Below are positions 2,362 through 24,240 of a stretch of 64,000 bases of DNA, in pieces. Both the position numbers and the translations under genes were made by a program. The stretch comes from Escherichia coli (GTDB lineage: Bacteria; Pseudomonadota; Gammaproteobacteria; Enterobacterales; Enterobacteriaceae). The notes under the pieces were generated by a model that saw nothing but the letters and a program-made list of their open reading frames with translations, ran no database searches and was not told the origin of the DNA. The stretch lies in NCBI RefSeq assembly GCF_003334785.1, contig NZ_QOWV01000001.1. One strand, written 5' to 3'. Every line of letters starts with the position of its first letter. Within the stretch, counting starts at the first letter, position 1.

Positions 2362-3299
2362 TGGTGATGATGTGAATGGCCAGACACCCCTTCATTCAGG
2401 TGGCAGTCTGGCCCATGACAAGGTTGATATTCCATCTGAATGGTGGCGTGCTCAATCTGATAGTGATCCATCAGGTAGTGTTGGATCTGATCCAACAAGG
2501 CATCGTGATCGTGTGGCGGGATCACCTGCACATGCAACGTCATCACCGGCTTCTCGCCTACCATCCATACATGTACATGGTGCACATTGCGGACTTCCGG
2601 GATTTCCCGGCACATACGACGCTTCAGTTCAGCGATATCCAGCGATACCGGTGCACCTTCAAGTAATTCATTCACGCTATCTTTCAACAGTCGCCACGCG
2701 CTACGCAGAACCAGAAGCGACACCAGTATCGAGAGAATGGGGTCAGCAGGTGTCCAGCCAGTCCAGATAATAATCAACGCGGCAATAATAGCCCCAACCG
2801 AACCCAGCAGGTCCCCGAGCACATGCAGTGCCGCTGCTCGTACGTTGAGGTTTTTCTCTTCGCTGCCGTGATGAAGTAACCAGAAAGAAAGTATATTTGC
2901 CAGCAACCCAGCCACGGCAATTGCCATCATCATGCCGCCCTCGACCGGACGCGGCGTGCGGAAGCGTTCTATCGCCTCCCAGACAATCAAAATGGTAATT
3001 ACCACGAGGGCTATGGCATTCACAAACGCCGCGAGCGTGGTCAGTCTTAGCCAACCGAAAGTGTGGCGAATGGTGGGAGGACGACGTGAAAATTGCACGG
3101 CGAGTAGGGCGAAAAGCAGGGCGGCAGTATCGGTCAACATATGACCCGCATCGGCCAGCAATGCCAGAGAACCAGAAAGAAAACCACCAACGACTTCTAC
3201 CAGCATAAACCCGGCAGTCACGCCGAAAGCATACAACAAGCGACGAGCATTATTATCTTCTGGCAGGTGTGAGGACGTGTGTGAGTGTGAGTGCGCCAT
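2358..3299 (-). CDS. zitB: Zn(II)/cation diffusion facilitator efflux protein
   Basis: 313-aa ORF with His-rich termini ([11 protein letters not shown]...HSHHHH) and a CDF-type transmembrane core. Confidence 0.93.
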
Positions 3300-20287: not shown

Positions 20288-20362
20288 AAAAATTCGTTGT
20301 CAGGATAAGGACAATCAATAAAGGACTTCTGTATGAGTCATACAGAAAGAACAGGATTTTAA

Positions 20363-21796
20363 ATGAATAAGAAATCGTTATGGAAGCTAATTCTGATATT
20401 AGCGATCCCATGTATTATTGGTTTTATGCCAGCTCCGGCAGGATTAAGCGAACTGGCGTGGGTGCTTTTTGGTATTTACCTGGCGGCCATTGTGGGGCTG
20501 GTTATCAAGCCTTTCCCGGAACCTGTCGTACTGTTAATTGCCGTTGCTGCCTCAATGGTGGTGGTCGGTAACTTATCCGACGGTGCGTTTAAAACCACCG
20601 CCGTATTAAGCGGTTACTCTTCAGGTACCACCTGGCTGGTGTTCTCGGCGTTTACCTTAAGCGCCGCATTTGTGACCACCGGTTTAGGTAAACGTATTGC
20701 CTATCTGCTGATTGGTAAAATCGGTAACACCACGCTGGGTCTGGGTTACGTTACGGTATTCCTCGATCTGGTACTGGCTCCGGCAACACCGTCTAACACC
20801 GCGCGTGCGGGCGGCATTGTGTTACCGATCATCAACAGCGTGGCGGTGGCTTTGGGGTCCGAACCGGAAAAAAGTCCGCGTCGTGTCGGACATTACCTGA
20901 TGATGTCCATTTACATGGTCACCAAAACCACCAGCTATATGTTCTTTACCGCAATGGCGGGGAACATTCTGGCGCTGAAAATGATCAACGACATTCTGCA
21001 CCTGCAAATTAGCTGGGGTGGATGGGCGCTGGCAGCCGGATTGCCGGGCATCATTATGCTGCTGGTCACCCCGCTGGTGATTTACACCATGTATCCACCA
21101 GAAATTAAGAAGGTGGATAACAAAACCATCGCTAAAGCGGGCCTTGCCGAACTAGGACCGATGAAAATCCGCGAAAAAATGCTGCTCGGTGTCTTTGTGC
21201 TGGCGCTGCTGGGCTGGATTTTCAGTAAGTCTCTGGGGGTTGATGAATCCACCGTGGCAATCGTTGTTATGGCAACCATGCTGCTGCTGGGTATCGTTAC
21301 CTGGGAAGACGTGGTTAAAAATAAAGGCGGCTGGAATACCTTAATCTGGTACGGCGGTATTATCGGCTTAAGCTCCTTATTATCGAAAGTTAAATTCTTC
21401 GAATGGTTAGCTGAAGTCTTTAAAAATAACCTGGCATTTGATGGTCACGGTAACGTTGCTTTCTTCGTTATTATTTTCCTCAGCATTATCGTGCGTTATT
21501 TCTTCGCTTCCGGTAGTGCCTATATCGTTGCTATGTTACCGGTATTTGCCATGCTGGCGAACGTCTCCGGCGCACCGTTAATGTTAACCGCGCTGGCACT
21601 GTTGTTCTCCAACTCCTATGGCGGCATGGTTACTCACTATGGCGGCGCGGCAGGTCCGGTCATCTTTGGCGTGGGTTATAACGATATTAAATCCTGGTGG
21701 TTGGTCGGTGCGGTACTGACGATATTAACCTTCCTGGTGCATATCACCCTCGGCGTGTGGTGGTGGAATATGCTGATCGGCTGGAACATGCTGTAA
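20363..21796 (+). CDS. ybhI: DASS-family anion (di/tricarboxylate-type) transporter
   Basis: 477-aa polytopic membrane ORF. Confidence 0.82.
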   Translation: MNKKSLWKLILILAIPCIIGFMPAPAGLSELAWVLFGIYLAAIVGLVIKPFPEPVVLLIAVAASMVVVGNLSDGAFKTTAVLSGYSSGTTWLVFSAFTLSAAFVTTGLGKRIAYLLIGKIGNTTLGLGYVTVFLDLVLAPATPSNTARAGGIVLPIINSVAVALGSEPEKSPRRVGHYLMMSIYMVTKTTSYMFFTAMAGNILALKMINDILHLQISWGGWALAAGLPGIIMLLVTPLVIYTMYPPEIKKVDNKTIAKAGLAELGPMKIREKMLLGVFVLALLGWIFSKSLGVDESTVAIVVMATMLLLGIVTWEDVVKNKGGWNTLIWYGGIIGLSSLLSKVKFFEWLAEVFKNNLAFDGHGNVAFFVIIFLSIIVRYFFASGSAYIVAMLPVFAMLANVSGAPLMLTALALLFSNSYGGMVTHYGGAAGPVIFGVGYNDIKSWWLVGAVLTILTFLVHITLGVWWWNMLIGWNML

Positions 21797-21926
21797 ATAT
21801 TCTCGTCATACTTCAAGTTGCATGTGCTGCGTCTGCGTTCGCTCACCCCAGTCACTTACTTATGTAAGCTCCTGGGGATTCACTCGCTTGTCGCCTTCCT
21901 GCAACTCGAATTATTTAGAGTATATC
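21797..21926. repeat. ERIC (IRU) element
   Basis: Contains cgctcaccccagtcacttactt and atgtaagctcctggggattcac, the canonical ERIC core inverted repeat. Confidence 0.85.
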
Positions 21927-21978
21927 CATTTATTATCTTTCTGCGCACTTCACGGTGCGCAGATATCTGGAGCATTTG

Positions 21979-24240
21979 ATGATCAAGTTATCTGAAAAAG
22001 GCGTGTTTCTCGCCAGTAATAACGAAATAATTGCCGAAGAACATTTCACCGGCGAAATTAAAAAAGAAGAAGCCAAAAAAGGCACTATTGCCTGGTCTAT
22101 TCTCTCTTCGCATAATACGTCCGGAAATATGGATAAACTTAAAATTAAGTTTGATTCATTAGCCTCTCACGATATTACCTTTGTTGGTATTGTACAGACC
22201 GCTAAAGCGTCCGGTATGGAACGTTTCCCGCTGCCGTATGTGCTGACCAACTGCCATAACTCACTCTGCGCCGTCGGCGGCACTATTAACGGTGATGACC
22301 ATGTTTTTGGTTTATCGGCGGCCCAGCGTTATGGCGGTATTTTTGTGCCTCCGCATATTGCGGTCATCCATCAATATATGCGTGAGATGATGGCAGGCGG
22401 CGGCAAAATGATCCTCGGGTCAGACAGCCACACCCGTTACGGTGCATTAGGGACAATGGCAGTCGGTGAGGGCGGCGGTGAGTTGGTAAAACAGCTGCTT
22501 AATGACACCTGGGATATCGACTATCCGGGCGTGGTTGCGGTGCATCTGACCGGAAAACCTGCGCCGTATGTGGGGCCACAGGATGTGGCGCTGGCTATCA
22601 TTGGCGCGGTGTTCAAAAACGGTTACGTCAAAAACAAAGTCATGGAGTTCGTTGGACCGGGCGTTAGCGCGCTCTCTACCGATTTCCGTAACAGCGTTGA
22701 CGTGATGACCACTGAAACGACCTGTTTAAGTTCTGTCTGGCAAACCGATGAAGAAGTCCATAACTGGCTGGCGCTGCACGGTCGCGGCCAGGATTACTGC
22801 CAGCTTAACCCTCAACCGATGGCGTACTACGATGGCTGCATCAGCGTTGATTTAAGCGCCATCAAACCAATGATTGCGCTGCCGTTCCACCCGAGCAACG
22901 TGTATGAAATCGACACACTGAACCAGAACCTGACCGACATTCTGCGTGAGATTGAAATTGAGTCCGAACGCGTGGCGCACGGTAAAGCCAAACTCTCGCT
23001 GCTGGATAAAGTGGAAAATGGTCGCCTGAAAGTGCAGCAGGGGATTATCGCGGGCTGTTCTGGCGGTAACTACGAAAACGTCATCGCGGCGGCGAATGCA
23101 CTGCGCGGTCAATCCTGTGGCAATGACACCTTCTCGCTGGCAGTTTACCCGTCATCACAGCCGGTGTTTATGGATCTCGCCAAAAAAGGTGTGGTAGCAG
23201 ATTTGATTGGCGCAGGCGCAATCATCAGAACCGCGTTCTGCGGCCCATGCTTTGGCGCGGGCGATACGCCAATCAACAACGGTTTGAGTATTCGCCACAC
23301 CACGCGTAACTTCCCGAACCGCGAAGGCTCTAAGCCAGCTAATGGGCAGATGTCAGCGGTGGCGTTGATGGACGCTCGTTCTATCGCTGCGACTGCGGCA
23401 AACGGTGGCTATTTAACCTCTGCCAGCGAACTTGATTGCTGGGACAACGTGCCGGAGTACGCCTTCGATGTAACGCCGTATAAAAACCGTGTTTATCAGG
23501 GCTTTGTGAAAGGGGCAACTCAGCAACCGCTGATTTACGGGCCGAACATTAAAGACTGGCCGGAATTGGGTGCGCTGACTGACAATATCGTCCTGAAAGT
23601 GTGCTCGAAGATCCTCGACGAAGTGACCACCACCGACGAACTGATTCCTTCCGGTGAAACCTCTTCTTATCGTTCAAATCCGATTGGTCTGGCGGAGTTT
23701 ACCCTGTCTCGCCGCGATCCCGGTTATGTTAGCAGAAGTAAAGCGACTGCTGAGCTGGAAAATCAGCGTCTGGCGGGGAATGTCAGCGAGCTGACAGAGG
23801 TGTTTGCGCGCATTAAGCAGATTGCTGGTCAGGAGCATATTGATCCGCTGCAAACTGAAATTGGCAGCATGGTCTATGCGGTGAAACCAGGCGATGGTTC
23901 TGCGCGTGAACAGGCGGCGAGCTGCCAGCGTGTGATTGGCGGTCTGGCGAATATTGCCGAGGAGTACGCGACTAAACGCTATCGTTCTAACGTCATCAAC
24001 TGGGGGATGTTACCGCTGCAAATGGCGGAAGTACCAACCTTTGAAGTGGGGGATTACATTTACATCCCTGGCATTAAAGCGGCGCTGGATAATCCGGGTA
24101 CGACGTTTAAAGGTTATGTGATCCATGAAGATGCGCCGGTAACGGAAATTACGCTCTATATGGAAAGTCTGACTGCTGAAGAGCGCGAGATTATCAAGGC
24201 GGGTAGTTTGATTAACTTCAATAAAAACCGTCAGATGTAA
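21979..24240 (+). CDS. ybhJ: Aconitase-family protein
   Basis: Start placed at [10 protein letters not shown] with a GGAG RBS; 753 aa. Confidence 0.85.

Follow-up and report, generated by a model that had tools for sequence, protein, structure and literature searches.

The stretch of DNA analysed here (the window, 64,000 nucleotides long) is 100% identical to Escherichia coli K-12, and its coordinates are converted into those of strain MG1655 by adding 781524. It includes the ybhHIJ gene cluster, in which ybhI (b0770; 20363-21796, + strand in the MG1655 annotation), encoding a putative tricarboxylate transporter, and ybhJ (b0771), encoding a putative aconitase-family hydratase, both lie on the + strand, 3' of ybhH; the gene of the LysR-type regulator, ybhD, is divergent from them. 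The TAA stop codon of ybhI (21794-21796, +) and the ATG start codon of ybhJ (21979-21981, +, as annotated in RefSeq) are separated by a spacer of 182 nt (21797-21978, +), towards the 3' end of which lies the Shine-Dalgarno sequence of ybhJ, a GGAG (21969-21972, +) that is invariant in all seven of the species aligned below. In RefSeq, YbhJ is a protein of 753 amino acids counted from the ATG at 21979, for which the GGAG is suitably spaced. A GTG at 21955 (+), within the 3' arm of a hairpin described below, opens a 761-aa reading frame that is in frame with ybhJ, and the longer form appears in some database proteins.

The spacer contains a full-length ERIC/IRU element of 127 bp (21798-21924, +), a length that includes both TA duplications (21798-21799 and 21923-21924). 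A repeat search delineated its central core inverted repeat (21846-21877, +), with the arms CCCCAGTCACTTAC at 21846-21859 and GTAAGCTCCTGGGG at 21864-21877, as well as the right terminal inverted repeat (21900-21925, +), inside which lies the AU-rich stretch GAAUUAUUUAG; the left terminal inverted repeat (21797-21822, +) was recognized by repeat search and folding. These two terminal arms are 26 nt long and 77% complementary. The sequence ATGTAAGCTCCTGGGGATTCAC is found exactly at 21862-21883 (+) and AAGTAAGTGACTGGGGTGAGCG exactly at 21840-21861 (-), each as the only copy in the window and with about zero chance matches expected; we take them to be ERIC1R and ERIC2, respectively, the standard ERIC-PCR primers. 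A preliminary description of this DNA had named the spacer repeat as an ERIC/IRU element with both core arms, and the exact primer matches and the core arms confirm this. It had also stated that the whole spacer is filled by the element; ERIC is indeed there, but it accounts for 127 of the 182 bases only, and the 54 nt downstream of it are older spacer. In every feature of the family that can be tested on the sequence (core repeat, length of ~127 bp, imperfect terminal repeats, TA duplication, membership of a dispersed multi-copy family), the spacer element is a regular ERIC member, and its position between the same-strand genes ybhI and ybhJ is intergenic. Set beside the ERIC/IRU elements of E. 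coli and Salmonella, with which it has in common the 127 bp, the exact core, the terminal repeats, the TA duplication, the intergenic location and the multi-copy character, it differs in nothing of substance. E. coli genomes hold a median of 12 ERIC-like places each (range 2-21). The RefSeq feature table of MG1655 lists no repeat feature at the position of the element. ERIC elements are textbook repeats, described as a family in 1990-1991, and the present copy is of this already known kind; its finding matters little beyond annotation. A variant of the core is seen in the ST131 strain 4433, where CTC is replaced by TGA at the equivalent of 21869-21871, so that GTAAGTGACTGGGG stands in place of GTAAGCTCCTGGGG; with these three bases changed, the central core becomes a perfect palindrome with CCCCAGTCACTTAC.

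Relatives without the insertion, a comparison that the preliminary description had called for, were found in two strains. The first is E. coli GF4-3, from a Gambian guinea fowl (NZ_CP053258.1, spacer at 3145-3201 of the extracted locus L082), in which ybhD, ybhH, ybhI and ybhJ are intact and ybhI and ybhJ are 98-99% identical to those of K-12. The second is SCPM-O-B-8794 (spacer at 2944-3000 of locus L080), which is labelled E. coli and whose ybhI and ybhJ are 93-94% identical to K-12, a level that would place it in a cryptic Escherichia clade. The empty site reads AAATA|TCC in both strains (more fully, ...GCTGTAAATA|TCCCTTCATTATCTTTCTGCGCAC... in SCPM-O-B-8794), whereas the filled site reads AAATA, then the element, then TA and TCCATTT. 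Since the empty alleles have one TA where the filled allele has a TA on both sides of the element, the ERIC copy is a true insertion at a TA; it took place 1 base past the stop codon of ybhI, in an older spacer of ~55 nt. Such a turning of a single TA into two is the signature of ERIC transposition (reviewed in PMC2229807, PMC3184786, PMC10969869). Directly downstream of the element, an AU-rich remnant of the original spacer persists as TCCATTTATTATCTT (21925-21939, +), two bases off the corresponding TCCCTTCATTATCTT of the empty allele in the alignment.

The flanks of the locus were matched in 5347 of 5426 complete E. coli genomes and the filled spacer in 5329 of them; the insertion is thus essentially fixed in E. 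coli for all practical purposes. Accordingly rare is the empty junction: a 55-nt probe spanning it matches a single one of the 5426 genomes, that of GF4-3. Beside the junction, the empty alleles of GF4-3 and of the cryptic-clade strain have two linked base differences in common (CCCTTC, against CCATTT in the filled allele), which suggests that the GF4-3 allele was either imported or is very old. Beyond E. coli, a scan with YbhJ that used one genome per species gave six enterobacterial loci among the matches listed. In E. albertii the identical site is filled, and the element differs from that of K-12 at 1 of 127 bases, the flanking genes being 88-92% identical. The patch of 95-99% identity between the two species is wider than ERIC and extends ~150 nt into ybhI; recombination is therefore as good an explanation as selection on the element, if not a better one, for the identity of the E. 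albertii copy. These distributions bear on the main rival of the reading that we develop below, namely that ERIC is a selfish miniature transposon which came to lie at an intergenic TA where it is tolerated and which was spread by drift, hitch-hiking or recombination without any measurable effect on ybhHI or ybhJ, so that only the native hairpin, if anything, would be functional. The strains with an empty site keep ybhH, ybhI and ybhJ intact, the presence of ERIC at a given locus is known from a review to vary among E. coli strains, the identity patch shared with E. albertii and reaching into ybhI resembles a recombination tract, and drift or hitch-hiking could explain near-fixation; the filled allele in 5329 of the 5347 flank-matching genomes is nonetheless a point against neutrality.

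Between the element and ybhJ lies a smaller stem-loop, UCUGCGCAC(U)-UCAC-(G)GUGCGCAGA (21940-21963, +), with perfect 9-nt arms at 21940-21948 and 21955-21963 and 6 nt between them. Its base precedes the Shine-Dalgarno sequence of ybhJ by 5-6 nt, according to how the base pair is drawn. The 8-bp arms given earlier (21941-21948 and 21955-21962) are correct, the full perfect stem being 9 bp, and so is the distance of 17 bp to ybhJ, in the sense that the ATG starts 17 nt past 21962, with sixteen nucleotides in between. The earlier treatment of the hairpin as a structure separate from ERIC stands; its linkage to ERIC does not, the hairpin being older than the insertion and conserved independently. 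Indeed, the alignment shows it unchanged in both empty alleles, and because it is present there and recurs in Citrobacter and Edwardsiella, the hairpin is ancestral, a part of the older spacer and not of ERIC. A stem-loop occupies the equal place in the ybhI-ybhJ spacers of Citrobacter youngae, two other Citrobacter lineages, Edwardsiella hoshinae and E. tarda, with stem sequences that differ and with a stem-to-GGAG spacing that is the same (6 nt) in every Citrobacter and Edwardsiella ortholog.

The covariation of the stem was examined in an alignment of seven sequences, one for each species, that were trimmed around the hairpin before aligning. Standard pairs fill 95% of its cells and six of the nine pairs are changed on both sides; the observed values of pairing and covariation were reached by 0-1 of 500 shuffles, and when the partners were slid by 1-3 columns as a control, pairing fell to 16-50% of cells. 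The seven pairs of stem columns 4-10 include six G·U cells and zero A·C cells. Together with the compensatory changes, the presence of G·U but not of A·C cells points to selection on the sense RNA, as opposed to the antisense strand or the DNA, which indicates that the hairpin is a sense-strand RNA structure kept by selection. Perfect stems of at least 8 bp are not rare in the window (24 hits at ~15 places, versus ~6 hits in shuffles), and the case for the hairpin beyond chance consequently rests on the cross-species covariation. The same alignment bears on the proposal that the small palindrome is not an RNA structure but the DNA operator of a dimeric regulator. The perfect 9-bp palindrome, the constant 22 bp from outer C to outer G in Escherichia and Citrobacter, and the existence before ybhI of another palindrome that keeps its TTCTGTA-N7-TACAGAA spacing with invariant arms would all suit an operator. 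However, arms that change in a compensating manner across species are unlikely for the site of a single protein, every mismatch in the stem is a G·U when read on the sense strand, and the palindrome, situated inside the gene cluster, is remote from the ybhD-ybhH promoter region and has a ribosome-binding site 5-6 nt away. We thus regard an operator as very unlikely. Operators of the CTGT...ACAG motif type, which is LexA-like or lux-box-like, were tried as candidates and rejected on account of misfitting spacing and covarying arms.

Within Escherichia, only the loop bases of the hairpin vary (UUCACG in K-12, UUUCCG in ST131, UUUACG in E. albertii). The hairpin is absent from three Citrobacter-type loci that have a 27-nt spacer, and in several species the entire spacer folds no better than shuffles. 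The hairpin is thus recurrent and under selection, yet dispensable. We found no earlier description of it in the literature, and it adds modestly to a class, that of intercistronic stem-loops, which is already familiar.

The cluster has a second structure of this sort. In the ybhH-ybhI spacer, 5 nt before the Shine-Dalgarno sequence of ybhI (AGGA), there is a perfect 9-bp hairpin, TTCTGTATG-AGT-CATACAGAA (20327-20347, +). Its arms do not change across E. albertii, C. youngae, the cryptic-clade strain and two further loci, all of which keep the pattern TTCTGTA-N7-TACAGAA; because its pairs never vary, an RNA structure and a DNA site are indistinguishable in this case. Common to the hairpins of ybhI and ybhJ are a UCUG...CAGA base and a placement ~5-6 nt before the ribosome-binding site. 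One could imagine that both are recognition sites of one RNA-binding regulator, the top candidate being the apo form of the aconitase-family protein YbhJ itself, by analogy with aconitases and IRP1, a conjecture to which we would give only the slightest chance. Were it true, the insertion of ERIC would have lengthened the distance between the ybhI stop codon and the regulator site of ybhJ by ~125 nt. An aconitase site resembling the iron-responsive element was considered and rejected: there is neither a conserved CAGUGN loop nor a bulged C, and the loops read UUCACG, GUUC, AAUAUGUG or GAAA depending on the species. In practical terms, the ybhHIJ cluster has its own conserved stem-loops before internal ribosome-binding sites, and these should be kept in mind in expression or engineering work.

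ERIC and the hairpin are both predicted to be stable RNA structures, as the preliminary description had anticipated in proposing a folding check. The predicted fold of 21797-21980 has a free energy of -58.5 kcal/mol (z = -5.4), and that of the hairpin alone -17.0 kcal/mol (z = -7.2). For ERIC alone, the predicted values are -38.5 kcal/mol (z = -4.2) for the sense strand and -48.6 kcal/mol (z = -7.9) for the antisense strand. A putative sequestration of the ybhJ ribosome-binding site was also considered, as short folds contain a helix of 4-5 bp in which UCCA or CUUCA pairs with UGGA(G); it was dropped, the probability that GGAG is unpaired ranging from 0.12 to 0.76 when more context is included, in a manner that follows no pattern with respect to filled and empty alleles or to species.

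A rival reading is that of transcriptional insulation, the ERIC stem and/or the hairpin stopping transcription that arrives from ybhHI, and ybhJ having its own promoter in or near the spacer. The length of the spacer (182 nt) and the U-rich UUUAUUAUCUUU that follows ERIC would be compatible with such an insulation, as would the fact that an RNA-seq study of a delta-ybhD mutant names ybhH and ybhI as derepressed and leaves ybhJ unnamed. In that study, the values for ybhJ are absent from the paper and its supplements. However, a scan of positions 21797-21978 detected neither terminator-like nor sigma-70-like promoter sites, the hairpin is followed by AUAUCUGG and not by a U run, and the outer stem of ERIC is AU-rich and imperfect. 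An intrinsic Rho-independent terminator was ruled out on the same grounds, namely the absence of any terminator-like site and of a U run, AUAUCUGG being what comes after the hairpin. In the supplementary tables of Term-seq data, no 3' end is mapped in the spacer, although expression there is probably low, and the sole nearby end is antisense and inside ybhJ. A further argument comes from another ERIC copy, which is 99% identical to that of ybhI-ybhJ, has an equal orientation and begins 6 nt past the stop codon of cusC in E. coli 13C1065T (2503-2629 of locus L083). This copy is flanked by the adjacent same-strand genes cusC and cusF, and cusCFBA is a co-transcribed operon; a like-oriented ERIC in this setting speaks against insulation, a reading that we consider quite unlikely. 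Our search of the literature on the ybhI-ybhJ junction gave no expression, 5'- or 3'-end or half-life data, and the other papers naming ybhJ concern a list of strain genotypes and an antisense small RNA.

A parallel is provided by the stop-adjacent 'B-oriented' ERICs of Yersinia enterocolitica (De Gregorio et al. 2005, as reviewed in PMC2229807 and PMC10969869). Like the ybhI-ybhJ copy, these are located directly past a stop codon, between genes of the same strand, form a long imperfect hairpin and have, in the 3' arm as transcribed, an AU-rich motif that here is putatively RNase E-like; the species differs, and the orientation class of the copy studied here is inferred. ERICs of Yersinia are co-transcribed with their neighbours, and where such an element occupies a gene's 3' end, the upstream transcript is lowered because the 3' arm has its RNase E site unmasked, an effect that depends on orientation (PMC2229807, PMC3184786, PMC10969869). 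The general idea of the preliminary description, that ERIC can alter the stability of neighbouring cistrons, is hence a published one for Yersinia (PMC2229807, PMC3184786, PMC10969869). A destabiliser of the Yersinia type would be marked by an upstream transcript less abundant than the downstream one, a difference that blocking translation should remove. The adjacency to a stop codon that typifies them is also found here, the ybhI stop being at 21794-21796 and the left TA of ERIC at 21798-21799. A putative RNase E-like site, GA|AUU, can be read at 21908-21912 in the 3' arm of ERIC and exists in the sense orientation only. RNase E prefers R-N|W-U-U, which GA|AUU fits. The transcribed orientation of ERIC is thus the weaker-folding one and has GA|AUU in its 3' arm; this motif and the position of the element are what lead us to assign the ybhI-ybhJ copy tentatively to the 'B' orientation. 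Based on geometry, this copy likely belongs to the Yersinia functional class, and it is plausible, in line with the published Yersinia model, that it uncouples ybhJ from ybhHI.

The evidence is best explained jointly by a fixed ERIC insertion beside an ancestral, selected hairpin, both acting on mRNA decay, with an effect of ERIC similar to that seen in Yersinia; we estimate the probability of this reading at roughly one in two. It assumes a single transcript of ybhH, ybhI and ybhJ, on which ERIC and the hairpin would act post-transcriptionally, by way of decay and not of termination. The native hairpin, in the absence of a conserved loop and of a U tract, would most simply be a barrier to decay between the ybhHI part of the mRNA and its ybhJ part. 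Since ERIC begins 1 base past the ybhI stop codon, a ribosome terminating there would sit on ~10 nt at the start of the left arm, and the outer stem would stay open; the 3' arm would then be exposed and could be cut at the RNase E-like GA|AUU. As a result, the ybhHI segment would be lost faster than the ybhJ segment, whose 5' side would still have the native hairpin close by. Against this, a neutral ERIC can call on the fact that none of the data searched (the delta-ybhD RNA-seq and Term-seq) show an effect at the locus. It has to contend with a geometry equal to that of the Yersinia cases for which an effect is established, and with a predicted structure of -38 kcal/mol placed 1 nt past a stop codon, which is unlikely to be wholly inert for mRNA decay. 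We therefore see neutrality as a serious possibility, though not as the favoured reading, which remains that of joint action on decay. With the natural empty alleles of GF4-3 and of the cryptic-clade strain, the Yersinia model, in which a stop-adjacent ERIC alters how stable neighbouring cistrons are relative to one another, could be tested cleanly in E. coli, and the cusC-cusF copy represents a second natural test case for an ERIC located after a stop codon.

Other known systems resemble parts of this arrangement. The REP between malE and malF is an intercistronic stem-loop that sets segmental mRNA stability. The ybhJ hairpin is likewise GC-rich, has no U tract, lies between cistrons of one cluster and is conserved in structure, but it lacks the REP consensus, has a single copy in the window and is found 5-6 nt from the downstream ribosome-binding site, a position from which protection of the 5' side of ybhJ would be just as conceivable. 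The Correia elements (NEMIS) of Neisseria are comparable to ERIC as miniature transposons with a TA duplication that are co-transcribed and form a hairpin, theirs being a nuclease target according to reviews; they are unrelated in sequence, and the cuts by RNase III fall at their long, perfect terminal repeats, in contrast to the mere 77% complementarity of the ERIC arms studied here. In Rfam, searched at a permissive threshold, there is no family for the spacer element, the only relevant hit being a sub-threshold one to V_AS5 (Vibrio RNA AS5, RF02818). Positions 1-129 of this model align to 21802-21925 (-), with the ERIC core in common. Membership was rejected, the score being 46.9 bits against a gathering score of 96 and the strand opposite to that of ybhI and ybhJ. 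From this alignment, V_AS5 itself appears to have been built on an ERIC-like repeat of Vibrio.

The locus as a whole has a scattered distribution. Among the matches listed, the closest relatives of YbhJ beyond a few enterobacteria come from gut Firmicutes (Lachnospiraceae, Hungatella) and a few Collinsella (Actinobacteria), with 66-73% identity (loci L007-L079 and L081); the 80 YbhJ matches listed, at one genome per species, include no locus of Salmonella or of E. fergusonii. This patchy occurrence of ybhJ suggests that the gene may have been transferred horizontally. In E. coli strain DAM, a seawater isolate (locus L095), an IS1A copy interrupts ybhJ soon after its start, and 79 of the 5426 complete E. 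coli genomes are without any match to the flanks of the ybhI-ybhJ junction; for both these reasons the locus is dispensable. Lastly, there are signs of transcription on the opposite strand. The supplement of Adams et al. 2021, in a table that we took as the Rho-dependent set, reports a 3' end at MG1655 position 805363 (-), that is, at about 23839 in the window, which is classed as antisense to ybhJ. Antisense transcription enters ybhJ and may originate from ybhC. A cis-antisense small RNA of 66 nt, ECS012, has also been described inside the ybhJ coding region (Shinhara et al. 2011).
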